DNA from: Patescibacteria group bacterium
GTDB taxonomy: Bacteria; Patescibacteriota; Minisyncoccia; Minisyncoccales; UBA10102
Direction of reading: 5' to 3'
Length of the DNA: 64,000 nt
Assembly: GCA_024239055.1 (NCBI GenBank)
Contig: JANBVJ010000003.1
Location: forward strand, 504-64,503
The position numbers and the translations under genes were made by a program. The number at the start of each line of letters is the position of its first letter. Positions within the stretch are counted from its first letter, which is position 1. Below the pieces are notes generated by a model. The model made no database searches. It saw only the letters and a program-made list of their open reading frames with translations, and had not been told where the DNA came from. Shown one piece after another: positions 6,912 through 52,975 of this stretch.

Positions 6912-7106
6912 TATCCCAATACCCCACCTATTTTGCTAAAACTTTTGCCAACAAACAATGTTTCAATGAAAACATAGAGTCTAACTAAGCAACAAAACAT
7001 TACAAAATAGTTGGTGATCTGATCATCAAATGATCTATGATGCAATTAACAGATTCAATTGCACTACGTAGCAAATTGAATTTTGAGACTGGTTCGGTCT
7101 AAAACA

Positions 7107-7226
7107 TGTCCCAATGCCTGTCCAAGTTGTCCAAAAATATAAAATTGCAGAACAGGATCTGCGACTTGGACATGCGACAGGATCACCATATCTTATCCCG
7201 AAACTTGTCCAATGTCCAAAGTCCAA
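7107..7226. repeat. GTCC(C)AA iteron array
   Basis: TGTCCCAA 7107-7114, TGTCCAA 7119-7125 and 7128-7134, inverted TTGGACA 7166-7172, tandem GTCCAAn x3 at 7207-7226. Confidence 0.6.
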
Positions 7227-7309
7227 AAGGGAAAAAAGAAAAAAAAGAGTTGCTAATAGTGAACCAGACTTATCTATCCGATCGCACCTGCGCAAGAAAA
7301 ATTTTTTTA

Positions 7310-7346
7310 ATTGTTCAGATCATTAGTTGATCTCTATTAGATCAGT
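7310..7346. repeat. Four GATC-centred repeats at exact 11 bp spacing
   Basis: GATC at 7310, 7321, 7332 and 7343 (cAGATCAttag / tTGATCTctat / tAGATCAgtag / tAGATCAaact). Confidence 0.6.
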
Positions 7347-7461
7347 AGTAGATCAAACTAACTAAAATGCAATTTGTCTGACCATTGATCCTCTCAAGAA
7401 AATTAAAATTTTCTAGTTAGTTAAATAAAGTTGTCATGCCACCTTTATCAGAACGAAGTTT

Positions 7462-8388
7462 ATGGATTGGCTAATGTCAGCAGAACAACAATCAGTAGAG
7501 AATCCACTGGAAGGAAAGTATGCAAGAATCACAGATCAAAAACTGATCGAAGAACTAGATAAGACAGAACTATGGATTGCACCAAACGAAACTGATGAAA
7601 CATTCGATATGAAAATCATTTCAGGTCAGTCACATAATTTAAAAAAATCAGCAGAGAATGTAGGACAGTTAAGACCAATTGAAGTAGCAGTTTGGAAAGA
7701 AGATCCTAATGCAAAGAGTGACAACTCACCAGAAAGAATTCACATGCGAATCATCAATGGTAGACATCGTTACAGACAGAATCCAAATTGGAGAAGAGAG
7801 TATTATGACTTTGGTGTTTACGAGAAAGATAAAGTAGATCCTGTATTGGAATACTATCTTGCAAGGGGACACTTCGATATGCAGAAGAAAGCATCAAGAG
7901 AAGAACGAAGAGTCCTTGTCATTGACATGGCAACAAGAATGATGAAACAAGGAAAACCTGCACCAGAATGTTGTGGTGAGATTGTAAAGGTGATGGAGAA
8001 TCAAGGAATATCAAATGAAAATTCCATCAGAGAAGTTTGTCCAAGAGAGTTCAAGGATCAAGAACATGCTGAAAGAAAAGCAGGTAAGACTTTTGAAAAA
8101 GCAGGAAGAGACACTAAAGAAGTTGTCAAACTCAAAAAGGTCGCAGGAGAAAAATACAAAGACATGGAGGACAAGAAAATTCTCTTAGAAACTGAGTACA
8201 CTAAAATCCAAAAAGAAAACATTGACTTGTATTCTGATCTAAAGAAACAACATGATACATTAGATGAAGTGGAATCAAAGTTGAGAGTTCTTGGTGAGAT
8301 GGGTACAAAGATAAAGTGTAAGTGCGGTAATGAAATTCCAGTGAAAGTAGATGTAACATCTTCAAAGATCATTGCAGAAAAGCAATGA
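7462..8388 (+). CDS. ParB-like nuclease-domain protein with coiled-coil C-terminal half
   Basis: LRPIEVAVW...RIINGRHRYRQN resembles the ParB/Srx core (xGxHR); K/E-rich coiled coil; lies just downstream of the iteron region. Confidence 0.55.
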   Translation: MDWLMSAEQQSVENPLEGKYARITDQKLIEELDKTELWIAPNETDETFDMKIISGQSHNLKKSAENVGQLRPIEVAVWKEDPNAKSDNSPERIHMRIINGRHRYRQNPNWRREYYDFGVYEKDKVDPVLEYYLARGHFDMQKKASREERRVLVIDMATRMMKQGKPAPECCGEIVKVMENQGISNENSIREVCPREFKDQEHAERKAGKTFEKAGRDTKEVVKLKKVAGEKYKDMEDKKILLETEYTKIQKENIDLYSDLKKQHDTLDEVESKLRVLGEMGTKIKCKCGNEIPVKVDVTSSKIIAEKQ

Positions 8389-8585
8389 CTCAAACCTTTT
8401 TTTCTGGTCAACGATTGATTATAATTTTAATTGGTTTAGCATTTCTTGGATTATTCTTAAATGGATTTTTAATAGAAAGTATGTTAGTCAAAGGATTCAT
8501 TACTGCATTAATTATTCCTGCGTTTCTTTTTTCATTATATCTTGTTATGAAGGAATACGAAAAAGACTATGCCGAGATCAAGTGA
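8385..8585 (+). CDS. small membrane protein (2 TM)
   Basis: ATGA overlap; LIIILIGLAFLGLFLNGFLI and FITALIIPAFLFSLYLV. Confidence 0.5.
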   Translation: MTQTFFSGQRLIIILIGLAFLGLFLNGFLIESMLVKGFITALIIPAFLFSLYLVMKEYEKDYAEIK

Positions 8586-8681
8586 TTGTGAAATTTGGTT
8601 GTGCAATAAATGTACAGATGAGAATTGTGATCATTACTGTCATCAGCAAAAAAGTCCAGATAAAAAATTAGTTGAAGTTTA

Positions 8682-8927
8682 ATGGCGAAAACAACTTCAC
8701 AGAATAAACATTGTCGAGGAATATGTGTAAGACACAAAGTAAGGAAAACAAAGTTAGCACAATCTTGGTACTCAATTGAAGGAGCAAAATATTGTTCAAG
8801 GTGTGGTGAGTTCATCAAGTGGGAAGGTTTTCACTGTCCTTGTTGTGGTGGTAGGTTACGATCAAGACCAAGAACAAATCTTGCAATTGATAAATATAGG
8901 CAAAGGAAAAAGGTCGTGTACCAATGA
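8682..8927 (+). CDS. zinc-ribbon protein (paralog of 2400..2645)
   Basis: CRGIC...CSRC...CPCCGGRLRSRPR; same architecture as 2400..2645. Confidence 0.6.
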   Translation: MAKTTSQNKHCRGICVRHKVRKTKLAQSWYSIEGAKYCSRCGEFIKWEGFHCPCCGGRLRSRPRTNLAIDKYRQRKKVVYQ

Positions 8928-9487
8928 AAGTGGATATTCATAAGACAAAGAAAAAATATCATGTGTTGATGGCAGATCCACCACACGAATACAAAAATCA
9001 AAAAACAGGTGGAGGAATGAAGTCAGGTGTTTCAAGTAAATATAAAACAATGTCATTAGATCAGATTTGTGGTTTACCAGTAAGAAAAATTGCTAACAAG
9101 AATTCAGTTTGCTTCTTATGGATTACAACTCCACTTATGGATAATGGATTTAGGATATTAGAAAGATGGGGATTCAAATACAAGACTCTAATTGTTTGGG
9201 ATAAGAGTGATAGTGGAGGATGGGGATTCTGGACAAGAACAGCAACAGAATTTCTACTAATAGGAGTTAAAGGAAAAGTAAAAGCATTCATGTCAAAGAG
9301 AACAAATGTAATCAGACACAAAAGAATTGGTCATTCTGTAAAGCCTGATGTGTTTAGGGAGATCGTAGAGGAATTAACAAAACAATTTGGTAAAAATAAA
9401 AGAATGATTGAACTTTTTGCTCGCAAACATCCATCTAAAAAACACTATGCGACAAAATGGGACTATTTCGGTAAAGAGTATTACTAA
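8924..9487 (+). CDS. MT-A70-family N6-adenine DNA methyltransferase
   Basis: ADPPHEY (DPPW-type motif IV variant), YKTMSLDQI, FLWITTP, WGFKYKTLIVWDK, HSVKPD and ELFAR match the MT-A70 pattern. Confidence 0.8.
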   Translation: MKVDIHKTKKKYHVLMADPPHEYKNQKTGGGMKSGVSSKYKTMSLDQICGLPVRKIANKNSVCFLWITTPLMDNGFRILERWGFKYKTLIVWDKSDSGGWGFWTRTATEFLLIGVKGKVKAFMSKRTNVIRHKRIGHSVKPDVFREIVEELTKQFGKNKRMIELFARKHPSKKHYATKWDYFGKEYY

Positions 9488-9547
9488 AATACTAAGATCA
9501 ATTTTTAATTTATTTTTCAAGCGATCTAATCAATCTTTAATTATCCC

Positions 9548-9570
9548 TAGTATCAAAAGATTTGATACTA
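9548..9570. promoter_or_regulatory. 23 bp palindrome upstream of the HNH gene
   Basis: TAGTATCAAA-aga-TTTGATACTA, a perfect 10 bp inverted repeat. Confidence 0.4.
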
Positions 9571-9675
9571 AAGGGGAAATAGAAAGAATTGAAAGAGGAA
9601 GGGATAACATGACTAAATATCTAAAAACCATGCCTGATGAATGTATAATTGACCTTTCAAATAGGTGGTATTGCA

Positions 9676-10272
9676 ATGCCTAAAAGAATAACTCAAAAGT
9701 ACAAGAGAATAGTAGATCCACTAATAACTAAAAGAGATGGAAATGTTTGTTTTTTTGATAAAATGCCTTTTGTTCCAGAGGTATTAAAATGGAGTAAAAC
9801 ATATCATCATTTGAATAAAAACACTGAGGATAATCATCCTGTAAATTTAGTTTTTGCTCATGAAGAATGCAATAGACTTTGTGAAACAAATCCAGAGTAT
9901 CAAACAATGTCAAGTCAAAAATTAAATGATAACCAAAAATATCATCAAGGTTTAGAGATTGAAGTTGTTGCGCATAATGATGAAGATAAAGAAACAAACG
10001 TAGAGATAGATACTAATGAATTATACAACAAGTTTGCTAATTCAGAACTTTTAGAAAAATTAACATCTCAAGGTGGAAAACCAGCACCGCATGAATCAAT
10101 TTCGTTTAAGGAAACATCTCTTGACATTGCGTATATGGTAAGGGAAGTTGTAGGACATGGATCGCCAATAACAGCAGGGAGAGCATTGGATACAGAATGT
10201 TCAAGTAAGGGAGAATTTGATAAATACAAAGAGCAGGGTGGAAAATGGAGAATAAGGAAGAAACAGACATAG
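9676..10272 (+). CDS. HNH endonuclease-domain protein
   Basis: Start set at ATG 9676 (MPKRITQ). HHLNKNTEDNHPVNLVFAHEECN fits H-N-H spacing. Confidence 0.6.
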   Translation: MPKRITQKYKRIVDPLITKRDGNVCFFDKMPFVPEVLKWSKTYHHLNKNTEDNHPVNLVFAHEECNRLCETNPEYQTMSSQKLNDNQKYHQGLEIEVVAHNDEDKETNVEIDTNELYNKFANSELLEKLTSQGGKPAPHESISFKETSLDIAYMVREVVGHGSPITAGRALDTECSSKGEFDKYKEQGGKWRIRKKQT

Positions 10273-10472
10273 AAGATGAAGAGATCGCATTAGAAGATAA
10301 AGAAATTACTCCAGAAGAAGATCCAGAAAAAGTAATAGAGATCACAGAAGATGATCCAGAATGTAAAGAGACATCAGAAGGCGATCAAATTATAGGAGAA
10401 GGAAAATCTATCCTCAAACCAAATCCTAAAGCCAAAGAAAGTGGTCAAAGGTCATGGTTTGATCTCTCATGA
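10245..10472 (+). CDS. acidic hypothetical protein
   Basis: 75 aa, E/D-rich. Confidence 0.45.
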   Translation: MENKEETDIEDEEIALEDKEITPEEDPEKVIEITEDDPECKETSEGDQIIGEGKSILKPNPKAKESGQRSWFDLS

Positions 10473-10711
10473 GTCTTTTTAGAAAAAGAGATTACATTAA
10501 TGACACAATTAGAACTACAGGCAAAAAAGATAATAGAATCATTCAAAAAAAAGCAAAGTTACCTACTCAAGATAAGACAAAATACTCAGTTTGTCCAAGA
10601 TGTAGCAAGAAGGGTTATGTTAGATCAAAAGGTTATTGTAAACTTTGTAAATTCAGGTTTACTCCGAAGAAAAGGTTTACCTACGAAAAGTTTACCTATA
10701 AAAAATGTTAA
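10469..10711 (+). CDS. basic zinc-ribbon protein
   Basis: ATGA overlap; CPRC...CKLC, K/R-rich; preferred over the alternative frame 10500..10742. Confidence 0.45.
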   Translation: MSLFRKRDYINDTIRTTGKKDNRIIQKKAKLPTQDKTKYSVCPRCSKKGYVRSKGYCKLCKFRFTPKKRFTYEKFTYKKC

Positions 10712-10720
10712 CACACATAG
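10700..10720. repeat. 21 nt direct repeat, copy 1 (AAAAAATGTTAACACACATAG)
   Basis: Identical to 11029-11049. Confidence 0.8.
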
Positions 10721-11028
10721 GATCGTTTTTGTGTTAGTATGACATAATCTAGATGCCTTTTCCTAGATACGCAATGTCGAGGATTCGGTACATTCGGGCA
10801 TGGGATCGTTATGAAAACATTCCGTTTCATTATAACCCCGATCTCATGCCTTTCCATTTTATATTAGGTTGGGATCGAAGTTACTTGCATAAGTGGAATT
10901 CATTCTTTGGGCATGTTTATCTTGACATTTTCATGTCCAGATCCCAACTCACACACCTTCATTTCGACTTCATAACTGGACTGGTAATTACTATGAGAAT
11001 TGTCTATGTCTATTGTCCAAAAAATGTT

Positions 11029-11049
11029 AACACACATAGCAAGCAACCA
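11029..11049. repeat. 21 nt direct repeat, copy 2
   Basis: Identical to 10700-10720. Confidence 0.8.
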
Positions 11050-11090
11050 AAATATCCTTATTTTTCTGATCGGGGAGGCTATGTGTGTGT

Positions 11091-11141
11091 ATGTGTGTGT
11101 ATAAAAAACGCAGAGAGAGAGACAGAGAGACGACCATTTGC
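11091..11141. repeat. Purine/pyrimidine microsatellites: (ATGTGTGTGT)x2 then a GA-rich tract
   Basis: atgtgtgtgtatgtgtgtgtat (11091-11112) and cagagagagagacagagagac (11121-11141). Confidence 0.85.
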
Positions 11142-11424
11142 ACCATAGTAGTTGACTCAATAATTCTAAATACGTTGAATGAATGATGAAATTAGTGGGA
11201 TCTGTCCGATTCAGACATGTACGCCTCGTACTCCCCTAAAAATTTCTAGGACAGACCTACTACTTTTTAATAAGTTTAAAACCTAGACTACCTGATCCAT
11301 ATTGGATTTGGCATAGCAGGGTTTTATTTTTGTTGTAATGTATGATTACCCCAAAATGTCCAATTGAATTCTGATGTGCCAAATTCTTTTTTCTAAATGA
11401 CTACGTAGGCATTTTAAATTGTGG

Positions 11425-11490
11425 GTTGACATCAAAAAGTGTATGTGTTTTCATCTCGTCTCACATTTGCTGTAACCAGCAGATGTCAAC
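11425..11490. other. 9 bp perfect inverted repeat GTTGACATC / GATGTCAAC
   Basis: Arms at 11425-11433 and 11482-11490; follows CTACGTAG at 11401-11408. Confidence 0.6.
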
Positions 11491-11677
11491 TCACTTTAAT
11501 TTGAATCAAAAAAACATTTACTACAAATACATTCAGTAGGATCGATCAAGAGAGTATTACATAGACTACAATGTTTTTCCAAGAATTGCTACGATTTTTT
11601 CTTACATATTAACCTAAAGCCGATCAAACGTTAATCAAAACAAACCTTATCAACGATTTCATCTATGTAGAATTGTG

Positions 11678-11734
11678 TCGGGAAAGTTTGGGATTCAGAC
11701 AGCAATGTTAGTTTCTCATTTGCTACTTTCCCGA
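11678..11734. other. 10 bp perfect inverted repeat TCGGGAAAGT / ACTTTCCCGA
   Basis: Arms at 11678-11687 and 11725-11734; about 120 nt upstream of the 11851 gene. Confidence 0.6.
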
Positions 11735-11850
11735 TCAATTAAGTCGGAGCAAAGCGAGTTACGATGAAGATTATCTCATTGTGAGGCATTTACTAGAGCA
11801 ATGATCTGAGTAACTAAATTTTTATCCCTATTTTAGAATAAGAAAGGAAT

Positions 11851-12903
11851 ATGGTATCAAAAGTCTTAATCTTAGCAGGAGTCATCGTAGTTGCTTTTGT
11901 TTTAGCAGGTGGTATGGGATTAATTAATTTTGGTGGCGCACCATCAGGTGGAGTTCCACAGCAAGTAGTTACTACTGTAGCAGGAACAGCGTTTTCAGGA
12001 GAATTAGATGTTCTATTACGACATGCTAATTCATTAGATAATTCCGATCAATTCCAAGAAGGAGCAAATAGTGACATTCACACAGTTTTCTACAAATCAC
12101 TTGACGGAGTACAATTTAGTTCAATAGGAGAAGGAGCATTAGGAACAGGTGGAGCATCGAGAGTAACAATTACACCAGACATGAATAGCATCCTATATGC
12201 AACAATAAATGTAGCAGGAATGTCACAACTTTATTCTGATCCAGAATTTACACAAGCAACCAATTCTAGAATAACAGAATTTACGTTTGAAGATGTCACA
12301 AATAACGGAGTTAAAGAATGGCTTTACAAAATAGGTTTACGTGGAATTTCAGTTCCTATTGCTGGACAAGATGCAAGTTCATTATCAATTATTGATCAAA
12401 CATGGGTTATGGCATTTCCAGTAACAATCAATTCACCAGCAAACATTCTAAATATTGGAAATCAAGCAGGAACTGTTAACTTCATCAGATGGGAACTAAC
12501 AACACCACAAGGTACAGCAACAGCACAAACTGAATATACAATTCAAATTGATAAGGTCGGTGGTCAAGCAGGAACAGAGTTTTGGGATGTAGGTCTAACC
12601 ACACTCGAAATTCCAAATATCGGTATAAAATCACTTACAGAATTTGATGAACAATTGCTTAGTGCCACAGAAACCCTCTATAAATTCAAAGTAGGTGATT
12701 CAGCAGATTTCGCAAATGCAAATTATGTAATAACTCCACAAAACGCAAACAATGTACATCCAATACCAGCAAAGATTGTTACAAGCCTATCAGATAACGG
12801 ACAAAACGATAATCTTGATGTGACATTGACTATAAAATGGCTAGATCAACGTGGTGGATCTCTTACACCAATAACAGATACAGTTCGATTAGACGAATCT
12901 TAG
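11851..12903 (+). CDS. putative major structural / surface protein with N-terminal membrane anchor
   Basis: 350 aa; N-terminus KVLILAGVIVVAFVLAGGMGLI; T/G/N/A-rich, Cys-free. Preceded by the longest noncoding region and followed by two strong stem-loops. The structural role is inference. Confidence 0.55.
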   Translation: MVSKVLILAGVIVVAFVLAGGMGLINFGGAPSGGVPQQVVTTVAGTAFSGELDVLLRHANSLDNSDQFQEGANSDIHTVFYKSLDGVQFSSIGEGALGTGGASRVTITPDMNSILYATINVAGMSQLYSDPEFTQATNSRITEFTFEDVTNNGVKEWLYKIGLRGISVPIAGQDASSLSIIDQTWVMAFPVTINSPANILNIGNQAGTVNFIRWELTTPQGTATAQTEYTIQIDKVGGQAGTEFWDVGLTTLEIPNIGIKSLTEFDEQLLSATETLYKFKVGDSADFANANYVITPQNANNVHPIPAKIVTSLSDNGQNDNLDVTLTIKWLDQRGGSLTPITDTVRLDES

Positions 12904-12938
12904 CATCAAATTTTTATAATTTTATAGTGATGGGTATG

Positions 12939-13011
12939 TGTTGATGATGAGAGAGGTTCTTGATGTAGTCATTAATATCAGGCTAATCCTCCTGCAAACT
13001 CATCATCAACA
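12939..13011 (+). other. 13 bp perfect stem (TGTTGATGATGAG / CTCATCATCAACA) with 47 nt loop
   Basis: Read directly; lies just after the 11851..12903 stop. Confidence 0.6.
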
Positions 13012-13013
13012 TT

Positions 13014-13067
13014 TTGTGTGACCAGTAAGCCCTAATGCCCAATTAGTGTAATCTCAAAGTCACACAA
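13014..13067 (+). other. 9 bp perfect stem (TTGTGTGAC / GTCACACAA)
   Basis: Read directly; second hairpin before the ATG at 13081. Confidence 0.55.
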
Positions 13068-13080
13068 CCCATTTTGTTAC

Positions 13081-13260
13081 ATGGTAAAGTACAACTGGTT
13101 CCAAATTACTACCATAATTATCGGACTTTATCTAATTTTCGAAGGTATTGGTTCATTTGTAATATTTGACGATCAAAACGACTTCTTCCAAGCAGGAAGA
13201 ATATTTAGGGTTATTGCTGGATTCTTCTTAGTGTTTGTAGTATCGAGGATGTTGAAGTAA
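13081..13260 (+). CDS. small hydrophobic 2-TM protein (59 aa)
   Basis: Just under the track cutoff. MVKYNWFQITTIIIGLYLIFEGIGSFVIF...RVIAGFFLVFVVSRMLK. Confidence 0.45.
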   Translation: MVKYNWFQITTIIIGLYLIFEGIGSFVIFDDQNDFFQAGRIFRVIAGFFLVFVVSRMLK

Positions 13261-13263
13261 CTA

Positions 13264-14721
13264 ATGGTTAGAGCAGGAGTAATAGCAGTAATTGTATTTT
13301 CTGTAGTTATAGTAGCAATGGTAGGAATATTCTCCCCATTCTTATTTCCACCAAACAACCTAATGGTTGATGACGATTCTACGATCAACTCTTTGTATGC
13401 ACAGTATGACAAAGCAATACGAGAGTTACTTGGTCAGGACTTTGAGAAACTAACAATTCCAGAAAAAGATGAGATAATGGAGATGGTAAAAGATCTTAAC
13501 GAAGAACTTGAGAAGGACATAATGGATAACAATCTAAACCAGACAGATCCTATTGACTTAGAAGATGATAACTCACTTGTTGAACCATGTGTTGGAGAAT
13601 GTCTGGATGCATTAGCAATAATAAATCCATGTGAAGAAGGTTTCATCTTTACTGACAATCTAGGTTGCATTCCTGAAACACTTGAAGGACTAGCAGACAT
13701 TCTAGACTTTGATCCATTAGATCCAGCAACAGAGTTCAAAGTAATATCAAGTATAGATTTAGTAGATTCAAACGGACAAAAATTCACTAACATAGTAGAA
13801 ACTGATCTTCCACTAACATCACTACTTACAAGGACAGGAGAAATTCTTGACTTGGGAAGAATTGACATTAGATTGATTGGAGAGTCAGACTCTAGAAATC
13901 CAATAGAGGCAGACGGATTGTTAGACATTGTATTGAACGGAGTTTCACAAAGACAGTTCAATCTAAAGCAAGTTGCAACACCAAACGAAATAACTAGCGC
14001 ATTTGAAATCAAGATTGCAGGAAAGTCACAGGAATCATTTAGTTTTGCAGGATTGCAGGACTTGGTAAGCGGTGACTTTGCAAACAACCTACAAGTTAAC
14101 TTGAGAGATTTCTCAGTAAAACAAGCAAATTCAACATTCTTCTCCCCACAAGATCTAACATTGTATGAATTAGACTTTGATTTTGATGCAGGACTAAGAA
14201 CAGTAACTGGTTCAACAGGAACAATAGGAGTAGTTGCAATTGCAGACGGAACAATAGAATTGTGTGCAGATGCAAGACAAACATTAGTAAACGGAGTTCA
14301 AGTAGATGTTCAACCAGATGTTCCAAGATCTGTTACAGTTCAGGTTCCAATGTTAGATGTAAATGGAAATCAAGTTCTAATGGATGGAGTTCCTCAGTTT
14401 AGTAATATAGTAACACCATTCTCAGTAGACATAAACTTACAAAGTATTGGTACAACGAGAATCAACTTACCAACATTTTGTGAGAAATCAGATGCAGTAA
14501 TACCAAGATCATCTATGGTTCAGATTGTAGTTTCAGGAATAAAATGTGGAACTGGTACAACTCCGACATGTGTAGACCTTCCACCACAAGTATTCCCACA
14601 AATAACTGCTGAAAATTCTGGAGTGCAATGGAAGATTGAATGTTTCATAGGAGGAATTGAAGTTATCAACCATTGGTGTACATCAAACTTTGTACCTGAT
14701 TATTCTTACAATAGGGGATAA
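13264..14721 (+). CDS. membrane-anchored large protein (putative virion/surface protein)
   Basis: 485 aa; N-terminal anchor VIAVIVFSVVIVAMVGIF; acidic linker; Cys-containing beta-rich region. Confidence 0.65.
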   Translation: MVRAGVIAVIVFSVVIVAMVGIFSPFLFPPNNLMVDDDSTINSLYAQYDKAIRELLGQDFEKLTIPEKDEIMEMVKDLNEELEKDIMDNNLNQTDPIDLEDDNSLVEPCVGECLDALAIINPCEEGFIFTDNLGCIPETLEGLADILDFDPLDPATEFKVISSIDLVDSNGQKFTNIVETDLPLTSLLTRTGEILDLGRIDIRLIGESDSRNPIEADGLLDIVLNGVSQRQFNLKQVATPNEITSAFEIKIAGKSQESFSFAGLQDLVSGDFANNLQVNLRDFSVKQANSTFFSPQDLTLYELDFDFDAGLRTVTGSTGTIGVVAIADGTIELCADARQTLVNGVQVDVQPDVPRSVTVQVPMLDVNGNQVLMDGVPQFSNIVTPFSVDINLQSIGTTRINLPTFCEKSDAVIPRSSMVQIVVSGIKCGTGTTPTCVDLPPQVFPQITAENSGVQWKIECFIGGIEVINHWCTSNFVPDYSYNRG

Positions 14722-14722
14722 G

Positions 14723-18638: not shown

Positions 18639-18754
18639 GTACAACTGAGAAAGAAGATGATCCAGTTCTAAAGAAGATCAATATTGTCTGTTTAGGAATA
18701 GTTTCCCCAATCATAATTTCTGTCTCAATTTTAATAGGATTAGGCGTACTTTAA
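18635..18754 (+). CDS. small C-terminally anchored membrane protein (39 aa)
   Basis: TTGA overlap; MSTTEKEDDPVLKKINIVCLGIVSPIIISVSILIGLGVL. Confidence 0.35.
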   Translation: MSTTEKEDDPVLKKINIVCLGIVSPIIISVSILIGLGVL

Positions 18755-18763
18755 TTCAAATCC

Positions 18764-18858
18764 CTACGTACTTAGTTTGAATCTGTTCACTGAATAGTCT
18801 ATTTTTCTATTTAGATATTGACTTACGGAGGACATGGCGACAGGTGGACAAGGCGACA
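18764..18858. promoter_or_regulatory. Operon-head regulatory region
   Basis: AATTCAAA-tcc-CTACGTAC-ttag-TTTGAAT palindrome, a TGTTCAC half-site, an AT-rich box, then tandem GGACATGGCGACA / GGACAAGGCGACA (18830-18842, 18846-18858). Confidence 0.5.
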
Positions 18859-19116
18859 TTAATGGATAGGGATTCGATTAAGGTATATCGAAAGTTTTGG
18901 GATCACTTTAAGTGGATTTTAGCGAGTCCTACTTCTCCGATCAAATCACTTAGTCAACTTGTTACTCTATGTTCAATGAAATGGATAAAAGAATACGAGT
19001 CAGCAAGTCCATCTCAAAAAAAGAGAATGATTGAGGAGATGAAAAATTTACAAAAGGAGGCAGAAAAAAAAGAATTTCTTCATAACTCAAGGGAGATTGT
19101 TGACAATGAAGAATGA
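18844..19116 (+). CDS. hypothetical protein
   Basis: GTG at 18844, or more likely ATG at 18862. Confidence 0.45.
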   Translation: MDKATLMDRDSIKVYRKFWDHFKWILASPTSPIKSLSQLVTLCSMKWIKEYESASPSQKKRMIEEMKNLQKEAEKKEFLHNSREIVDNEE

Positions 19117-32162: not shown

Positions 32163-32384
32163 ATGGTTAAAGGTTTCAGAGATGCAACAGGGAGATTTAG
32201 ACCTACTGGAAAGAACAAAGGTAAGTCAAAGAGACGTAAGAGTTTGGGAGTAGAGATAGTTTCAGTTACTCTTGAACCAAAAACTATCAACAAAGTAAAA
32301 CAAAGACAGGTAAAGAACATCAAGAAAGGAACACCAAATCCTTCATTCTCTCAGGCAATCAATCAATTAGTAGATCAGGCATAG
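32163..32384 (+). CDS. KGF-leader family member 15/15; C-terminal RHH-like module
   Basis: MVKGFRDATGRFRPTGKNKGKSKRRKSLGVEIVSVTLEPKTINKVKQRQV...SFSQAINQLVDQA (strand-helix-helix pattern). Confidence 0.65.
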   Translation: MVKGFRDATGRFRPTGKNKGKSKRRKSLGVEIVSVTLEPKTINKVKQRQVKNIKKGTPNPSFSQAINQLVDQA

Positions 32385-35362: not shown

Positions 35363-35418
35363 TAAAAGTGCGATCAACATAACTCTTTTATCCTCCTACT
35401 TTCAATTCACTACTACCA

Positions 35419-36429: not shown

Positions 36430-36583
36430 AGCAAAACCATTCGGTGGTTACAACATAAAATTTGAAAACTGTCCAGAAAGTATGGAAGATGTTTTCGGAA
36501 AAAAACCACTTAGTCCATCAGAGATGACAAAGGTTCTCTGGAAGTTTATAAAAAAACATAGACTGTCTGGATACAATGATTAA
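36422..36583 (+). CDS. SWIB/MDM2-like fragment (53 aa)
   Basis: Hand translation: MPKAKPFGGYNIKFENCPESMEDVFGKKPLSPSEMTKVLWKFIKKHRLSGYND. Resembles the first half of SWIB (G..P.sR.Ev.K.lW.YIK.h.Lqd) and then ends. Confidence 0.45.
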   Translation: MPKAKPFGGYNIKFENCPESMEDVFGKKPLSPSEMTKVLWKFIKKHRLSGYND

Positions 36584-36807
36584 GCACCAATAATCCACTC
36601 TGGTACTAATCTCAATTTAGAACCACATGTTTTACAGAAGATACGACCATCAATTTCATAGGCATCATTAACTCCATGTGATTCACAACAGAATTTTTTC
36701 AGAACTACCTTGTCATAATTACCAAACACGAAGTTGAGACGGAGAGGCTATTAACATATTAGGATAACAAGAAAAATTGACTTTGGAGTGGAAATAAAGG
36801 GGTAAAC

Positions 36808-36856: not shown

Positions 36857-37020
36857 ATTTATCACTTTTTTTTTCTAGGCGATATATATACAAAAACTAC
36901 CAGAAAATCCTCAGAAAAAACTAAGATTTTACAAGGGTTGTTTGTGATGCCATTTTTCATTCACAAGTGATTTTGTTGTGATATAACTTTGAGATTTTTT
37001 ATTAATTTACGAATAAGAAA

Positions 37021-37112
37021 AATTTCAAATCACTACGTAGTATATTTGAATTGTTCGTTTATGTGAACAAACAATAAAACATATACTACTACTACTACTA
37101 ATTTACTTAATG
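37021..37112 (+). promoter_or_regulatory. Promoter/operator cassette A
   Basis: AATTTCAAAT-ca-CTACGTAG-ta-TATTTGAATT; TTGTTC-N8-GAACAA (37051-37070); ACATATA box (37079-37085); (ACT)x5 (37085-37099); ATG 37110, about 28 nt from the box centre. Confidence 0.65.
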
Positions 37113-37268
37113 GTAGCAAACAAAAATCGAGTTAGCAACTCACAAAAATCGGAAGAGAAAAAATTTAGTATGAATGAAACTGAATTATTAGAATCTAGTA
37201 GATTAAGAAAAATATTTTCTGAGCAAAATTTAGAATCAACCAAACTAGGAAAGAGGTTTTACGTTTGA
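37110..37268 (+). CDS. first-gene small protein of cassette A (52 aa)
   Basis: MVANKNRVSNSQKSEEKK...; N-terminus and its DNA are near-identical to those of 40140; TTGA junction to the next gene. Confidence 0.45.
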   Translation: MVANKNRVSNSQKSEEKKFSMNETELLESSRLRKIFSEQNLESTKLGKRFYV

Positions 37269-38029
37269 GTCAAAAAACAAAAAGAAAGAGAACAAGAAAT
37301 TGCGGTAAAAGAGCAAAATTAAATTCTCAAGGTTTTAAGACTTACAAAAATTTTAGAATATACATTGCTGAGACATCTAATGGAGGCTATAGTAGAAATC
37401 CTAAACCAGCACCTAGATCACAAATTGTAGATATAGTTAGAGATCTATGGAATAATGACAAGTCAGTAAAAGCAATGCGTAAACACATTAAAGAAATTAG
37501 TATTAGATATACACAAAACGGTATTGCTGGTACATGGTTTAAAGAAAAACAAAAAATAGTTGTTAACGATAACGGAAGAGATACAATTCCATTTTACAAA
37601 TCAGTTTTAATTCACGAAATAGTTGGTCACACATTTTGGGATTTTTCAAGAAAATATAGAAGATTAGAATTAATTGAATTTAACAAACTTGCAAATAAAT
37701 TATCTCCAGTTAGCACCTATGTAAAAAAACATACTGATGAGTGGAAAAAAATTAATGATGAATATGACGACTTAGAACAATTTGAAAAGAGTATTGAACA
37801 TATTCCAGACTATGATGCATCCGAAGAGTTAACTAAAGAATATCAAACAAAACAAGAATCATTTGATGAAAATAGAAAAACAAACGGTCATGATTTAATG
37901 ACACGTTATGCTAATGAACAACATAGCGCAATTACTGAAATTGTTTATGGATCAAACGGTCATGACACTATACTAGATCAAGAGAACATTGATAAATTAA
38001 TCAAACTGTGGGAAGGTTTACACTATTGA
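37265..38029 (+). CDS. HExxH metallopeptidase-like protein
   Basis: TTG start; KSVLIHEIVGHTFWDF. Confidence 0.55.
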   Translation: MSQKTKRKRTRNCGKRAKLNSQGFKTYKNFRIYIAETSNGGYSRNPKPAPRSQIVDIVRDLWNNDKSVKAMRKHIKEISIRYTQNGIAGTWFKEKQKIVVNDNGRDTIPFYKSVLIHEIVGHTFWDFSRKYRRLELIEFNKLANKLSPVSTYVKKHTDEWKKINDEYDDLEQFEKSIEHIPDYDASEELTKEYQTKQESFDENRKTNGHDLMTRYANEQHSAITEIVYGSNGHDTILDQENIDKLIKLWEGLHY

Positions 38030-39843: not shown

Positions 39844-40051
39844 TCCAGATTTTCAAGTTTTTGCGCCAAAACCTCAAAACACTCAGATCGTGACTGTATA
39901 GAGGCTATTTTGGCTAAACCTTCAAAAATCCCTCAAATCTCAAAAAACTGGTTATTTTTTCTTTATTTTTAGAAAAAAAGTAAAATTTGGGTTATTTTCA
40001 TTTTTTTAAGGAAATTTGGGATTTTTCTTAGTATTTGGCAATTTAGGCAAA

Positions 40052-40142
40052 AATTCAAAAACCCTACGTATAGGAATTGAATTGTTGTTCAAATTGAACA
40101 AACAATGCTTAATAACTACCACTACTACCAATTATGTTAATG
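40052..40142 (+). promoter_or_regulatory. Promoter/operator cassette B
   Basis: AATTCAAAAacc-CTACGTAT-aggAATTGAATT; perfect 17 bp palindrome TTGTTCAAATTGAACAA (40085-40101); TTAATAA (40109-40115); ACTACC/ACTAC repeats; ATG 40140. Confidence 0.65.
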
Positions 40143-40700: not shown

Positions 40701-43085
40701 ATGACTGTAGAAAAATATACTCCAACTATTAGGAAGGAAAAAGTTTTAGATATTCAAGGTACAAACTACGAATCTAAATTAGATTCAATTATGAATAAAG
40801 AGGGATTTATCAAAACAAGATTGAATGAAGAGGTAATTATTCAAGCGGTATCTCACAAATTGTATAAAGATCCAGAGTCAGGATTAAGAGAACTATACAA
40901 TAATGAGGCTTATCATGGTTGTTTAGTAGCAAAAACAAAACACAATGAAAAAAACGCATACATCAAAGTCTCATTAAACACAACAACTAGAAAATTAATC
41001 ATTCAAGGTTTTAACTCATTAGGAATTACGGAAGAGGTTTTTACAGAAATTTTAACTGAATTAGGTACATCAGGTAATAAAGACAGAACTAAAACTGGTA
41101 AATTCGGTATGGGTTTTGCATCATACACAAAGTTATCAGACATTATGATTTTAGAGACTGAATGTATTAATGGAGATTGTTATGCAGTATTGGCTAAAGG
41201 AGGATTAGGATTTCAAAAACTTCCTAAACCAAAATTAGAAAAGACTGGTACACGATTAACTTTAACACTACGAAAAGATGTTAACTTTGAAAAATTAGTT
41301 AGCATGTTATCTAATCTTGGAATGACATCTGGAATTACAACTTACTTTGAATTAGAATCTCCAAAATCAATTAATGAATTCAAATCTGGAATATACACAC
41401 TTGAACAATTTAGTTACAAACAAATTTTTGACAATATGAATAATGCAAGTTCAGATCATTATTCCTATTTAAAATCAAGTCTAGTAAATGACCAAGTTGA
41501 AGTTCATTTAAGTTTAGCAGTTGATAGTAACGGTTCATTAAAAAATGACAGAAATAAGAAATTTTATCTTTGTAATAGTCCTATTCAAGTTCTATTAGAT
41601 GAAGATTCAACAAGTGACAGAGCATACAATCTTGATGAGGATGAAGATTCAGACGAATACAAATTAGCAGAACAAGAAAGAGATAATTATAAAACAACTA
41701 GAATTGATGAAATTGAATTTGCAAATTTAGTTGTTAACATGAAGGATGAGGATCTTTTTGAACCTATGCAAGATCGAGAAAGAACAACTAAAGATGCGGA
41801 AAAAAGATTAAGAAAAATTATAGTTGATTTGTATAATGAGACTTTGAAAAAAATAAAACCATGTGAGAGTTTAGATTCATGGTTCAATCATGAACACAAA
41901 TATTTTATTTCATCTAGTGAGGCAGATATAGTTTCAATTCTAGATGACAAGTCAAAAACAATTCAAAAATTCCTTAACACTAAAGTTATGGAATATGATC
42001 TCGATGGTAGAATAAAATATGATACTAAAGAATTAAAAGACATTATTGAAAATTCTGAAAATTACTTTTACGTAAACAAAAAAGATAAGAGAGTAACAAC
42101 TCTACTTGAAGAAAACTTTGAAGATTTCTTTTTAGTTATGGTACATCCAGATAAGGAACCATATTTTGAAAACAAAACTCTATACAATGACACAATTAAG
42201 ACTTTGAAATATTTCAAATTCAATGAGGCAAAACAGTATTGTAAAGATCATGACTTTAAGGCAAAAAGAGTTCTTGGAGAAAAAGAAGATCGAACAAGTG
42301 AGGATATAGTTCTGCATTATTCTGATACAAATAATTCTTATTCTGGTTATGGACATTCAGACACATACGGAGAATACACAAAAACGGTTAGATTAGGATC
42401 AGATGACTTTGAAGATCATAAAAGTCTAATTATTCAAGTTGCTCCATTCTCTTGTTACAGAGATGTTTTAAAACAATTCAAAACTGATTATTATCTTGCA
42501 AGTGAAAAAAAGAATATAGATGCACAAACTTTAATTGAACTTCAAAAAAATCTAAAAGAAAAATTTGCAAAATGGGAGTCTAATCATGAATTTGTAACAC
42601 TTGAAAAAATTCTAAAGTACAAACAAGTTACATTAAACTTTGAGTGTTTTGAAAATAGCCATGAAGATTCAACTAAAGGATTAAGTGAAATTCCAAAAAA
42701 TAAATTGTATATTGTTGGAGGATCTAAAAGTCTGTTTGAGTTAGCATTAATTCTAATTTATAATGGTGTTGACTACGAAATAACCAATGAGTCTTTAGAT
42801 GGATATTACAAACCTAAAGTAAAGGCTTTAGAAAAAACTCTAAACTTAATTGGTGAGGATCTTTATGAAGGAAAATTTGACGATATATTTCTGTATGAAA
42901 AGTATCTACTAAAGGTTAGATCATTTGAAATTAAAGTTCAAGATCCAATTCTTAGGAAATTATTCAAGTTAAGTCATGATGAAAAGAATCTAAAAGAAAT
43001 TTCAAACGACATTATAACTCTAAACGAAAAATACAAAATTGAAAAACCAGTCCTTAACAGAAAAGAATCGGAGTATATATCATAG
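40701..43085 (+). CDS. GHKL (Hsp90/MORC-like) ATPase-domain protein
   Basis: 794 aa. LRELYNNEAYHG (N-box-like), KLIIQGFNSLGITEEVFTEILTELGTSGNKD (compare Hsp90 LxIxDxGIGMTxxEL..NLGTIAxSGT), GKFGMGFASYTKLSD (compare GQFGVGFYS). Confidence 0.6.
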   Translation: MTVEKYTPTIRKEKVLDIQGTNYESKLDSIMNKEGFIKTRLNEEVIIQAVSHKLYKDPESGLRELYNNEAYHGCLVAKTKHNEKNAYIKVSLNTTTRKLIIQGFNSLGITEEVFTEILTELGTSGNKDRTKTGKFGMGFASYTKLSDIMILETECINGDCYAVLAKGGLGFQKLPKPKLEKTGTRLTLTLRKDVNFEKLVSMLSNLGMTSGITTYFELESPKSINEFKSGIYTLEQFSYKQIFDNMNNASSDHYSYLKSSLVNDQVEVHLSLAVDSNGSLKNDRNKKFYLCNSPIQVLLDEDSTSDRAYNLDEDEDSDEYKLAEQERDNYKTTRIDEIEFANLVVNMKDEDLFEPMQDRERTTKDAEKRLRKIIVDLYNETLKKIKPCESLDSWFNHEHKYFISSSEADIVSILDDKSKTIQKFLNTKVMEYDLDGRIKYDTKELKDIIENSENYFYVNKKDKRVTTLLEENFEDFFLVMVHPDKEPYFENKTLYNDTIKTLKYFKFNEAKQYCKDHDFKAKRVLGEKEDRTSEDIVLHYSDTNNSYSGYGHSDTYGEYTKTVRLGSDDFEDHKSLIIQVAPFSCYRDVLKQFKTDYYLASEKKNIDAQTLIELQKNLKEKFAKWESNHEFVTLEKILKYKQVTLNFECFENSHEDSTKGLSEIPKNKLYIVGGSKSLFELALILIYNGVDYEITNESLDGYYKPKVKALEKTLNLIGEDLYEGKFDDIFLYEKYLLKVRSFEIKVQDPILRKLFKLSHDEKNLKEISNDIITLNEKYKIEKPVLNRKESEYIS

Positions 43086-44490: not shown

Positions 44491-44520
44491 TTACTGTTAC
44501 TAACCTATTAACTCTCGACT

Positions 44521-44580
44521 GTTTGTTCACTTTGAACACACAACTCTTTAATACTACAACTACTACTACTACTACTAATG
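44521..44580 (+). promoter_or_regulatory. Promoter/operator cassette C
   Basis: TTGTTC-acttt-GAACA (44523-44538); CTTTAATA box (44546-44553); (ACT)x6 (44559-44576); ATG 44578. Confidence 0.6.
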
Positions 44581-45707: not shown

Positions 45708-45709
45708 AA

Positions 45710-46039
45710 ATGAATCAAAAACAATTCCTAGAATCAGGAAATTATTTAATTGATGAAGTCAAAACAAGAGCAGAAAAAGGATCACCATACTTTTTCAGTC
45801 CTGCAACAATGAGAGGATTTTCAAGTCGTTTAAGTGAACTGTGCTGGCGTTCAGGCGAAAAAATTTACTTCATAACAAGTGAAGCCGATAAAGATTACAT
45901 AAAACATTCTGGATCGGTTCGTCAATGGACTGTAAGATATATTTCATTAGACGGAAATATTGAAACATTAGGAAAATTCCAAGAACATCAAAATCTTAAC
46001 GATGCAAGAAGAGCAGTAAAAGAGGCTTTAGTACATTGA
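45710..46039 (+). CDS. hypothetical protein
   Basis: 109 aa; motif GSPYFFSPATMRGFSSR. Confidence 0.55.
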   Translation: MNQKQFLESGNYLIDEVKTRAEKGSPYFFSPATMRGFSSRLSELCWRSGEKIYFITSEADKDYIKHSGSVRQWTVRYISLDGNIETLGKFQEHQNLNDARRAVKEALVH

Positions 46040-46773: not shown

Positions 46774-46774
46774 A

Positions 46775-49089: not shown

Positions 49090-49099
49090 GGTTAATAAC

Positions 49100-51597: not shown

Positions 51598-51643
51598 GTA
51601 AAGATAACAAGTTAATAACCATACAGTTAGAGGTAGAGAACTA

Positions 51644-51754
51644 ATGAGTTGTAATACTTGTAGAAGAAGTGATCCTCACTGTCATCATTTCTTTGATAAA
51701 TCTAAATGTGTTTTTTGTGGATATGAACCATTTAAAGATGAGGTAGAGAACTAA
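51644..51754 (+). CDS. mini-gene b: 36 aa Cys/His peptide
   Basis: MSCNTCRRSDPHCHHFFDKSKCVFCGYEPFKDEVEN*; flanked by GAGGTAGAGAACTAATGA junctions. Confidence 0.35.
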   Translation: MSCNTCRRSDPHCHHFFDKSKCVFCGYEPFKDEVEN

Positions 51755-51918
51755 TGACAGATAGAAACAAGACAGGAGATGCAAGACAAAGACCACGAAA
51801 GAATCTAAAAAGCAGAAAATTAACGAAGGAAGAATTTGAAAAGACAATAAAGAACAATCACATGGTTTTAGGAAAGGATAATGTTTGGAGATTTCCAAGT
51901 GAGGTAGAGAAAAAATGA
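51754..51918 (+). CDS. mini-gene c: 54 aa basic peptide
   Basis: MTDRNKTGDARQRPRKNLKSRKL...FPSEVEKK*; same junction motif. Confidence 0.35.
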   Translation: MTDRNKTGDARQRPRKNLKSRKLTKEEFEKTIKNNHMVLGKDNVWRFPSEVEKK

Positions 51919-52046
51919 GTTTTCAAGCACCATTATGCAAAAGTTGTTTTCACACTGATCCAGATTACTCTTCACTTGGAGTCAACGAAAAAGGAATAAT
52001 CAAGTTAAAGTGTGTACACTGTGGAGCAGTTTCGGAGAAAGATTAG
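51915..52046 (+). CDS. mini-gene d: 43 aa zinc-ribbon peptide
   Basis: MSFQAPLCKSCFHTD...KCVHCGAVSEKD*. Confidence 0.35.
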   Translation: MSFQAPLCKSCFHTDPDYSSLGVNEKGIIKLKCVHCGAVSEKD

Positions 52047-52080
52047 ATTGAAACAAACTTCATCCGATGGGAACAGAAAA

Positions 52081-52314
52081 ATGAAATTTTACGATTACGA
52101 TATTGTTCAATGCAGATGGTGTTACAAAAATATTCCAAGACAAGATGCCAAATTAAGTCAATCAGATGAAGATAAACCAGAACATTATGAGTTGAATCCA
52201 CGAAATGAAAAAGATGTTTATTTTGACGAAAACGGTAAAAGATTATGGGTTTATTGTAGTGACTGTGATAAAGAGATAATTGAAGCAAATAGGGATGATT
52301 TTTCAATTGAGTGA
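52081..52314 (+). CDS. zinc-ribbon protein
   Basis: Start set at ATG 52081 (MKFYDYDIVQCRWCYKN...CSDCDKE); the track GTG start overlaps mini-gene d. Confidence 0.45.
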   Translation: MKFYDYDIVQCRWCYKNIPRQDAKLSQSDEDKPEHYELNPRNEKDVYFDENGKRLWVYCSDCDKEIIEANRDDFSIE

Positions 52315-52513
52315 AAAGAAAACTAAAACAGAGATTTTGGAGGATATAGATCAATACATGGAGGAATGTTGCATTAACATCTTTGAAAACCTTCAAGCAA
52401 ACGAAGTCACCCTAAATGGAGAGGAGATCCTCCGATCAGCAGATGAGTTCTATAAGAAATTAGATCATCAAAACAACAAAGTCATCGTTACAGGAGACGG
52501 TAAATTTGCCTAG
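52307..52513 (+). CDS. hypothetical protein
   Basis: Start set at in-frame TTG 52307 (MSEKKTKTEILEDID...). Confidence 0.45.
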   Translation: MSEKKTKTEILEDIDQYMEECCINIFENLQANEVTLNGEEILRSADEFYKKLDHQNNKVIVTGDGKFA

Positions 52514-52582
52514 TTTGTTCATAAGTTATAGAGAAAACAATATAAGATATACTACTACTACCAAAGGTGTAGAATTACTATG
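52511..52582 (+). promoter_or_regulatory. Promoter cassette D (degenerate)
   Basis: GTTTGTTC half-site, TATAAGATAT box, (ACT)x3, AGGTG SD-like, ATG 52580. Confidence 0.45.
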
Positions 52583-52711
52583 AGTCAGGTACATGAAAGA
52601 AAGGTGCATTGTGATAACTGTGGCTACTCTTGGGTATCAAAGTCAGATATGATTATGATTACATGTCCAAGTTGTATGCGCAAAGTCAATACTGAGAAGA
52701 AACGTAAGTAA
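52580..52711 (+). CDS. 43 aa zinc-ribbon protein (paralog of 57799..57918)
   Basis: MSQVHERKVHCDNCGYSWVSKSDMIMITCPSCMRKVNTEKKRK*. Confidence 0.45.
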   Translation: MSQVHERKVHCDNCGYSWVSKSDMIMITCPSCMRKVNTEKKRK

Positions 52712-52800
52712 ATTCGGTCAACTAACTGTTTAGGTGGAACAGGGGAAATGCTTCTTTCGGATAACGAAATTTTTTGTTAATTTACGCCCAATATTTTTTC

Positions 52801-52975
52801 TAAACCGCTACGTAGCATAATTGAAATTCAATCAGGCATCAAAACAGGAAAAAACTAAAGTCGATTTTTGTCGTTACCTGCACCTGCTGGATAACGCTGA
52901 GTCACGAACAGAAGGTGTTCAGCAAAAAGCACATACAATACTTTATAACTACTACTATAACTACTACTACCAATG
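52801..52975 (+). promoter_or_regulatory. Promoter/operator cassette E
   Basis: CTACGTAG (52808-52815) + TTGAAATTC; GAACA-gaagg-TGTTC (52906-52920); CTTTATAA box (52941-52948); ACT repeats; ATG 52973, about 28 nt from the box centre. Confidence 0.6.

Follow-up and report, generated by a model that had tools for sequence, protein, structure and literature searches.

The operators of three regulators of archaeal viruses, SvtR (SIRV1), AvtR (AFV6) and F55 (SSV1), are imperfect repeats, short and either inverted or tandem, that lie at several promoters of one viral genome, among them promoters of structural genes and the regulator's own. In the case of SvtR, the high-affinity site is located ~80 nucleotides (nt) upstream of the TATA box and B recognition element (BRE) of SIRV1 gp30, and repression is achieved by spreading (PMC5569661). 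Here we analyzed a 64,000-nt stretch of contig JANBVJ010000003.1 (hereafter the window), which probably forms part of a ~79-kb virus-like element of an archaeal host, likely an ammonia oxidizer, and which carries repeated copies of an ~31-bp near-palindrome, TTCAAA..C.CTACGTA..TTGAATT, that we named site A. Similar to the operators of these three viruses, site A is an imperfect repeat found at several promoters of one genome, and the element likewise encodes a ribbon-helix-helix (RHH) protein; moreover, the ~80 nt of SvtR is comparable to the ~70 nt of site A, a precedent indicating that such an upstream-site geometry is workable in an archaeal virus. Unlike these systems, with which neither operators nor proteins share any sequence relation, the putative operator is longer (~31 bp, in three blocks), occurs in 8-9 copies and keeps one orientation, and the presumed host is a mesophilic ammonia-oxidizing archaeon rather than a member of the Sulfolobales.

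Two systems of bacterial phages also invite comparison. The stoperators of mycobacteriophage L5 are reportedly 13-bp asymmetric sites for gp71, a helix-turn-helix repressor, by which the phage genome is silenced as a whole. Site A resembles them in its many genome-wide copies, which mostly occupy short gaps between genes and point the same way with respect to transcription, yet it is a 31-bp quasi-palindrome associated with archaeal-type promoters, and no lysogeny module or integrase was found in the element. T7-type phage promoters, in turn, are class-specific sequences of ~23 bp. Like them, site A is a long conserved sequence, repeated in front of several transcription units and always facing the same way, whereas no viral RNA polymerase or sigma-like factor was found here, and site A has dyad symmetry and usually lies upstream of a separate canonical TATA box. 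To our knowledge, viruses of ammonia-oxidizing archaea (AOA) are barely characterized, and we know of nothing on the timing of their gene expression.

Copies, anatomy and conservation of site A

The first-pass annotation of this DNA had reported an 8-bp palindrome, CTACGTAG, at the center of a longer dyad, with four exact and two one-mismatch copies, all of them intergenic. Exact matches to CTACGTAG are indeed present at 7064, 11401, 37033 and 52808, where 0.10 would be expected in the window, and none of 100 dinucleotide-preserving shuffles contained four. Among the one-mismatch matches (16, compared with 4.7 expected), those at 18764 (CTACGTAC) and 40064 (CTACGTAT) have the same flanks as the exact copies and are genuine, and all six copies lie in the largest of the gaps that separate plus-strand genes. 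They are given below, together with their orthologues in related contigs, which carry L numbers:

7050..7084, plus strand: site A copy 1, CAGATTCAATTGCA-CTACGTAG-CAAATTGAATTTT, exact core; orthologue L009:792
11387..11421, plus strand: site A copy 2, TTTTTTCTAAATGA-CTACGTAG-GCATTTTAAATTG, exact core; orthologues L019:3888, L021:2597 and L009:4976
18750..18784, plus strand: site A copy 3, TTTAATTCAAATCC-CTACGTAC-TTAGTTTGAATCT, one-mismatch core; kept in L006, L007/8/9, L019, L020 and L021
37019..37053, plus strand: site A copy 4, AAAATTTCAAATCA-CTACGTAG-TATATTTGAATTG, exact core; orthologues L022:6465 and L023:1721
40050..40084, plus strand: site A copy 5, AAAATTCAAAAACC-CTACGTAT-AGGAATTGAATTG, one-mismatch core; orthologues L022:9406 and L023:5262
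52794..52828, plus strand: site A copy 6, TTTTTTCTAAACCG-CTACGTAG-CATAATTGAAATT, exact core

Counts over the whole element cover the 73.9 kb that we rebuilt of the 79-kb parent contig, ~5 kb at the contig end lying outside, and coordinates that are negative or above 64,000 denote positions of the parent contig on the numbering of the window. Two further exact copies of CTACGTAG lie beyond the window, at -363 and 66150, and a degenerate copy of site A (GTACGTAG) is found at 71084. On the plus strand the 7-mer CTACGTA occurs eight times, always in noncoding DNA, which constitutes 14% of the sequence, and all eight occurrences fit the pattern TTC-N6/7-CTACGTA-N5/6-TT[GT]AA; in first-order Markov simulations the 7-mer is expected 0.62 times and the full pattern 0.0 times. 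The possibility that the motif is just as frequent inside coding regions, raised in the first-pass annotation, is thus at odds with a count of zero coding copies among these eight. All copies of site A have the same orientation, with the T-rich side upstream and co-directional with the genes, and they are scattered at intervals of 3-15 kb along the whole genome. The sequences 52794..52825 and -377..-346 are 100% identical over 32 nt, which marks the limits of site A. As for the claim that the motif is confined to operon heads, the copies do lie in intergenic DNA ahead of gene blocks, but many heads have no site (e.g., 27016, 32528, 34631, 35419, 44578 and 58236), site A marking ~1/3 of transcription-unit heads, and TACGTA by itself also occurs eight times inside coding sequence.

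Scans for the full pattern returned 1 match in IMG/VR and 12 in GTDB genomes, each of them single, in unrelated bacterial sequence and at about the chance rate, and tblastx detected no kinship between the element and the genomes in question. Matches at this rate indicate that site A is no host-wide motif in those collections.

The anatomy of the site was derived from a position matrix built on 21 distinct sites, which reads T-14 T-13 Y-12 N A-10 A A (T) C-6 N C-4 T A C / G T A, a variable +4, and T+10 T+11 R+12 A+13 A+14 T+15 T+16 (G+17). Rather than the 8-bp palindrome first proposed, the conserved unit hence comprises a T-rich stretch, TTYNAAA, C-N-CTACGTA, in which the C two bases upstream of CTACGTA is invariant and has no mirror partner and the eighth core base differs between orthologues (G, T, A or C), and then TTRAATT(G). 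The arms mirror each other at positions 10, 12, 13 and 14 on either side of the palindromic TACGTA, and two of the dyads end at 37052 and 40083, not at 37050 and 40084 as had been annotated. Site A is accordingly a directional quasi-palindrome of ~31 bp, and its three conserved blocks follow one another at about one helical turn: they are centered near -12, 0 and +13, ~10-13 bp from one another, as is expected of the sub-sites of RHH operators. As RNA the site would fold poorly, with hairpin energies of -1.5 to -9.1 kcal/mol and z scores mostly above -1 relative to shuffles, and the mirrored arms around TACGTA together with this weak hairpin potential fit a multimeric DNA-binding protein. No intrinsic terminator pattern was detected at any copy, Rfam gave 0 matches over the window at gathering score, and sigma-70-like matches were close to or below those in shuffles (22 compared with 19.6, and 35 compared with 47.1 +/- 5.7), none being aligned with a site A copy.

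Some of the copies belong to larger similar units. The segments 37018-37103 and 40049-40133 are paralogous modules, and 52767-52830 is similar to 66107-66171. The copies at 7064 and 11401 lie upstream of ~400 nt of noncoding DNA conserved above the level of the proteins: ~410 nt of highly conserved noncoding DNA follow copy 1, and copy 2 forms the 5' edge of its conserved block, with conservation beginning at the left arm.

Relatives of the element were found through two protein families, a 512-aa protein (19097-20635) and a 794-aa protein (40701-43085), and came only from Joint Genome Institute (JGI) metagenomes and exact-protein look-ups; searches for related loci in IMG/VR and GTDB genomes found none. 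In relatives with 56-90% protein identity, site A is kept at orthologous intergenic positions while the flanks diverge. The 18764-type site is kept in L019/L020 (90% protein identity), L021 (75%), L006 (72%) and L007/8/9 (60%), among which the sequence upstream of it is unalignable; the 11401-type site is kept in L019, L021 and L009, the 7064-type site in L009, and the 37033- and 40064-type sites in L022 (67%) and L023 (70%), L022 having an additional copy ahead of a MscS-like gene. Absence from related elements, which the first-pass annotation had said would speak against a regulatory motif, is therefore not what these contigs display. Synteny across the copies is otherwise maintained, except that the 350-aa gene following 11401 is absent from L019 and that L022 has ~4.5 kb of additional genes before its 37033-type copy.

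Site A was not found in relatives at ~40-46% identity (L010-L017 and L024). One of these, L024 (GCA_029460335.1, JARPAM010000089.1), has instead TTATCACTA/TAGTGATAA half-sites in 18 copies within region 2850-14020, 17 of them intergenic, which often form 10-bp inverted repeats ~20-24 bp apart. These GTTATCACTA..TAGTGATAAC dyads are comparable to site A in being multi-copy, intergenic and located ahead of a B-like hairpin (see below) and a TATA-like box, an arrangement similar to that of the element, while their sequence is unrelated and their widely spaced 10-bp arms enclose no central palindrome. A different dyad in a relative that lacks site A is the picture that operator-regulator pairs specific to each lineage would give. 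The L024 dyad locus also codes for Ku and an ATP-dependent DNA ligase. An over-representation of TTCTAGAA in L013 and L016 was also considered as an analogue and was rejected, its copies being in coding sequence.

To summarize, over-represented, restricted to noncoding DNA and near promoters, site A behaves as expected of a transcription-factor operator, and we regard it as a genuine and strongly conserved, though ordinary, kind of cis-element in an unusual virus-like element.

Promoter context and probable host

TATA-like boxes were called by direct reading; a position weight matrix proved circular and missed obvious variants. Such boxes (TTTTTATAC, CTTTAATAC, CTTAATAAC and similar) end 22-24 nt before ATG(G) at 11851, 25386, 32528, 35419, 37110, 40140, 44578 and 52973, with the distribution of box-to-ATG distances peaking at 22-23 nt. 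A distance of 22-24 nt is the spacing of leaderless archaeal transcripts. From the start of the core to a leaderless-type ATGG there are 73 nt for the copy at -363, 70 nt for that at 18764 (to 18834), 77 nt for 37033 (to 37110) and 76 nt for 40064 (to 40140); the five copies in L022 and L023 give 74-77 nt, and L021 and L006, with small insertions, give 83-88 nt. The center of the site is thereby placed ~66-73 bp upstream of the start (near -70), which leaves about four helical turns between it and the downstream TATA box. The features recognized around the copies are as follows:

36995..37011, plus strand: T6-ATTAATTTACG box, ending 21 nt before the core of copy 4
37051..37070, plus strand: element B, an inverted repeat TTGTTC..GAACAA, between site A and the TATA-like box
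37078..37110, plus strand: TATA-like box AACATATAC, 23-nt ACT-repeat spacer and ATGG, the presumed leaderless archaeal-type promoter of copy 4
40084..40103, plus strand: element B, GTTGTTCAAATTGAACAAAC, between site A and the TATA-like box
40108..40140, plus strand: TATA-like box CTTAATAAC, 23-nt spacer and ATGG, the presumed promoter of copy 5
18800..18834, plus strand: TATA-like TATTTTTCTA, 24-nt spacer and ATGG of a putative short upstream open reading frame (ORF)
52770..52786, plus strand: T6-GTTAATTTACG box, at equal spacing ahead of copy 6
36583..36723, minus strand: zinc-ribbon ORF, divergent from the copy-4 promoter region, 71-74% identical in L022 and L023

B-like elements are also present in L022, L023 and L024. 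A T6-NTTAATTTA(C/G)G box accompanies three copies, 37033, 52808 and 66150 (box at ~66113); TTAATTTA ends exactly 23 nt before the core, so that it could be an upstream TATA box, with a second transcription start on the core itself. The element has only three minus-strand loci, the zinc-ribbon ORF (36583-36723), ORFs ending at ~66004 and an RHH gene (70465-70932), and each of them faces a site A copy. The zinc-ribbon ORF is missing from the deposited gene calls.

The putative short upstream ORF at 18834 would terminate on the start of a conserved 84-aa gene at 18862. In this region (18822-18862), GGACA(T/A)GG(C/A)GACA repeats, with homologous ones in L006-L017, immediately precede the 84-aa gene in all relatives, even those with 40% identity, and here they constitute a 10-codon upstream ORF whose stop overlaps the ATG of that gene. 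A second recurrent module consists of a TATA-like box, an ACTAC(T/C)ACTAC repeat spacer and ATGG, and is found at 35386-35419, 37078-37110, 40108-40140, 44546-44578, 52535-52561, 52941-52973 and 58202-58236, with 58202-58230 being 100% identical to 40104-40132. As read from their sequences, these modules are a family of near-identical leaderless-type promoters.

Instead of a setting of bacterial operons, these promoters suggest that the window is probably part of an archaeal virus-like element. We infer an archaeal host because of the TATA-like, leaderless promoter geometry and a DUF7447 gene (45710-46039) shared with viruses of Nitrosopumilaceae: the best annotated matches of its product are to two putative spindle-shaped viruses of Nitrosopumilaceae (52% and 46% identity), whose records appear to be those of PMC10866085, and it is the only gene in common with those two viruses. 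The contig is placed by NCBI in a Patescibacteria bin (locus tags KJI69_...), and it was probably mis-binned in that metagenome-assembled genome; our finding thus flags it as a probable archaeal virus-like element.

The parent scaffold is scaffold_156 (79,121 bp) of the European Nucleotide Archive (ENA) metagenome ZHAO22-1_SAMN11268109, of which the window represents the reverse strand, and the sample is subsurface sediment of the Arctic Mid-Ocean Ridge (PMC7768721). In the public scaffold, window ~11090-11144 corresponds to a 100-N gap with a ~55-nt duplication at its edges (L003 12956-13165); the window has this gap closed and is 155 nt shorter there. That the left and right halves are one element, which had been proposed from the shared motif, agrees with their location on a single contig and with the occurrence of left-gene and right-gene homologues together on the 47.5-kb contig of a relative.

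About 95% of the proteins of the element are without annotation. PHROGs and Pfam gave almost nothing for the ten largest proteins, with no terminase, portal, capsid or polymerase match; megablast of 8 kb against GenBank phages, a tRNA scan, and tblastn of the ATPase and the 794-aa protein against phages likewise returned no match. A MT-A70 methyltransferase matches only assorted bacterial phages, and the 1.13-Mb contig L025, with a distant homologue of the 794-aa protein, is a defense island and is uninformative on the host.

Proposed regulatory role, rival explanations and candidate regulators

The explanation we prefer, held with only slightly more confidence than doubt, is that a multimeric regulator recognizes site A in double-stranded DNA by its sequence, so that the site works as an operator or as an upstream regulatory site. 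This protein would probably be encoded by the virus and would possibly be an RHH protein, a dimer of which, or cooperating dimers, would bind TTYNAAA, C-N-CTACGTA and TTRAATT on one face of the DNA. At least eight copies would be occupied ahead of the rightward gene blocks of an element with archaeal TATA-box, largely leaderless promoters, and the bound protein, about four turns upstream of the TATA box, would either repress the adjacent promoter, by spreading or looping, or activate it, such that many gene blocks would come under coordinated control. The first-pass annotation had spoken of a dimeric master regulator; the mirrored arms and weak hairpins do fit a multimeric binder, but with only ~1/3 of transcription-unit heads marked by the site, the word master is not established.

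Several observations weigh against an operator of this kind. Across the 21 sites C-6 and C-4 are invariant and have no mirrored G, a pattern that, with the single orientation, one would not expect of a simple homodimer site and that points to a directional function. The copies at 7064, 11401, 52808 and 66150 are not 70-77 nt from a recognized start, and since 37033 and 40064 belong to paralogous modules, their matching spacing is not independent evidence. The RHH candidates inside the window are without homology support. In addition, the case for an archaeal host is built on the promoter geometry and a single shared gene, set against an NCBI bin of Patescibacteria.

The main rival, unlikely in our estimate and still deserving real weight, is that site A is itself a specialized, self-contained archaeal promoter. 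A variant BRE/TATA would be provided by its left arm TTYNAAAT, in front of which GCAAAA or AGAAAA is often found; C-N-CTACGTA would occupy about -22 to -14, TTGAATT would be the melted region, and transcription would start at the T-G ~17 nt to the right of the dyad center. Recognition of the invariant core would fall to a factor of the virus or to one specific paralogue of the host's TATA-binding protein (TBP) or transcription factor B (TFB). The left arm does span -30 to -23 relative to the conserved T+16/G+17, and the single orientation, co-directional with the genes, and the asymmetric conservation agree with a promoter, as do the conserved block at 11401 that begins at the left arm, the 13-bp stem there that begins exactly at +17 (11421), and the long conserved noncoding stretches, possible RNAs, downstream of 7064 and 11401. 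However, the left arm has a conserved C where the element's own TATA boxes (TTTTTATAC, CTTTAATAC) have T/A, a T-run and not a purine-rich BRE lies upstream of half the copies, and at least four contexts have a canonical TATA box 28-38 nt downstream with a fixed 70-77 nt from core to ATG, which would be needless for a stand-alone promoter. The mirror symmetry of the arms is also left unexplained, and predicted 5' structures do not consistently start at +17 (a rule that conserved 5' stems always begin there was considered and dropped, not being borne out across sites). The fixed 70-77 nt spacing to leaderless starts points to transcription and so speaks against site A as a site of DNA transactions, be it the loading of a partition, condensation or packaging protein, a replication-related role or a hotspot of module exchange. 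This we consider quite improbable, even though the copies are dispersed every 3-15 kb over the whole genome, neighboring gene blocks vary (the 350-aa gene not in L019 and the ~4.5 kb extra in L022), the copy at 7064 lies within a block with GTCCAA iteron-like repeats and GATC clusters, and a ParB-fold protein is encoded at 32528-33769. That protein, the only one with a ParB fold, is of the GmrSD_N nuclease type, and the sites are dispersed and not clustered as in a parS-type centromere; PHROGs and Pfam annotation of the element's proteins revealed no ParA/ParB pair, integrase or recombinase, and indels by intergenic regions are expected anyway, with synteny otherwise kept.

Two further explanations dispense with a bound protein. 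Exceedingly unlikely, in our view, is a role in RNA, as an intrinsic terminator, processing site or stabilizing stem-loop between operons. Oligo-T is an archaeal termination signal, and the near-palindrome is located between gene blocks with a T6-T7 run in the left arm of 5/9 element copies; the copies at 7064 and 40064 fold moderately well, with z scores of -2.7 and -2.2. Yet the T-run precedes the stem and does not follow it, most copies reach -1.5 to -4.4 kcal/mol, no better than shuffles, changes in the arms are uncompensated (e.g., TTCTAAA opposite TTGAAT), and neither the terminator scan nor Rfam gave support. Very unlikely, too, is that the copies are functionless leftovers, either of promoter-cassette duplication or of a small mobile repeat, as might be imagined from the 32-nt identity of -377..-346 and 52794..52825, the paralogy of 37018-37103 and 40049-40133, and the resemblance of 52767-52830 to 66107-66171. 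Among the 21 sites the spacer positions are randomized while 17-18 positions are fixed, and orthologous copies persist at ~60% protein identity; a miniature inverted-repeat transposable element (MITE) is further contradicted by the lack of target-site duplications, of copies in coding sequence and, in the collection scans, of relatives elsewhere, and by positions that are orthologous across relatives.

A more far-reaching form of regulation, which we regard as rather improbable, is that site A serves as a genome-wide switch in an undescribed ~80-kb family of AOA viruses, either as the target of a divergently encoded stoperator-like repressor or as a promoter class for one TBP/TFB paralogue. 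In the former case nearly all rightward operons would be silenced via oriented sites, an archaeal counterpart of phage stoperators, and in the latter a virus would exploit promoter selection resembling that by sigma factors. Returning to the operator that we prefer, a sharply defined conserved site of 31 bp provides a concrete handle for finding its regulator, and can be used to delimit transcription units in a genome that is ~95% unannotated and to recognize relatives in metagenomes.

The RHH-like proteins that the first-pass annotation had put forward as candidate regulators are both encoded in the window:

1447..1662, plus strand: RHH-like candidate, assignment unconfirmed; AlphaFold2 (AF2) model with coil, then helix-helix-helix, predicted local distance difference test (pLDDT) 69, no Foldseek match
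32163..32384, plus strand: RHH-like candidate, assignment unconfirmed; AF2 model with N-terminal beta-hairpin, coil and two helices, pLDDT 78, no Foldseek match

Comparisons with Pfam, PHROGs and PDB sequences, hhalign and Foldseek all failed to back an RHH identity for either, and the AF2 secondary structures are compatible with one (strand(coil)-helix-helix order). The sole profile-supported RHH protein, of 156 aa, is encoded outside the window on the minus strand (70465-70932), with a NikA-like match of 27.7 bits (cut-off 27) as well as DUF6290 and TacA matches, and its gene is ~150 nt from the degenerate site A copy at 71084.

Noncoding blocks and other features of the element

The noncoding block around copy 1 (6912-7473) is 86% identical to L009, compared with ~60% protein identity, and its indels are incompatible with a coding sequence. 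GTCCAA repeats (7120, 7129, 7207, 7214 and 7221), GATC clusters and an A-rich tract lie within this block, which could be a replication origin or a structured RNA. A 49-nt repeat within it (aatttgtctgaccattgatcctctcaagaaaat..., 7373-7421) is 90% identical to 70970-71016 (L005 22683-22729), and this second copy lies between the minus-strand RHH gene and the degenerate copy of site A. Downstream of copy 2, a 13-bp stem, GTGGGTTGACATC / GATGTCAACTCAC (11421-11494), recurs in four relatives, where two single changes are compatible with G-U pairing, and may represent a structured noncoding RNA; in L009 a 76-nt insertion directly follows it.

Upstream of the 40064-type copy, L022 (9065-9400) and L023 (4980-5250) have runs of A5-7 tracts at a spacing of ~9-10 nt (aaaaaatcc aaaaaaccc aaaaaaatct ...), which, judging by this phasing, is predicted to be intrinsically bent DNA just ahead of the site and the 794-aa gene. 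Following the 37033-type copy, a single 309-aa gene of L023 (1797-2726) corresponds in position and summed length to two ORFs here, of 52 aa (37110-37268) and 254 aa (37265-38029), which could reflect a frameshift or a split gene.

Finally, at least 12 genes of the element, with starts at 14723, 15469, 16183, 23007, 27016, 28092, 28959, 29338, 30173, 31266, 31724 and 32163, share an N-terminal peptide, M[AV]KGF[KT]D.KG.F[RH]PTGN, with 60-77% conservation at the DNA level. The product of 32163-32384, one of the two RHH-like candidates, carries it as an MxKGF..G.F.PTG N-terminal tag, and in its AF2 model the peptide forms a beta-hairpin (residues 4-14, pLDDT ~87). Possibly the peptide serves virion proteins as a common tag for targeting or as a propeptide.

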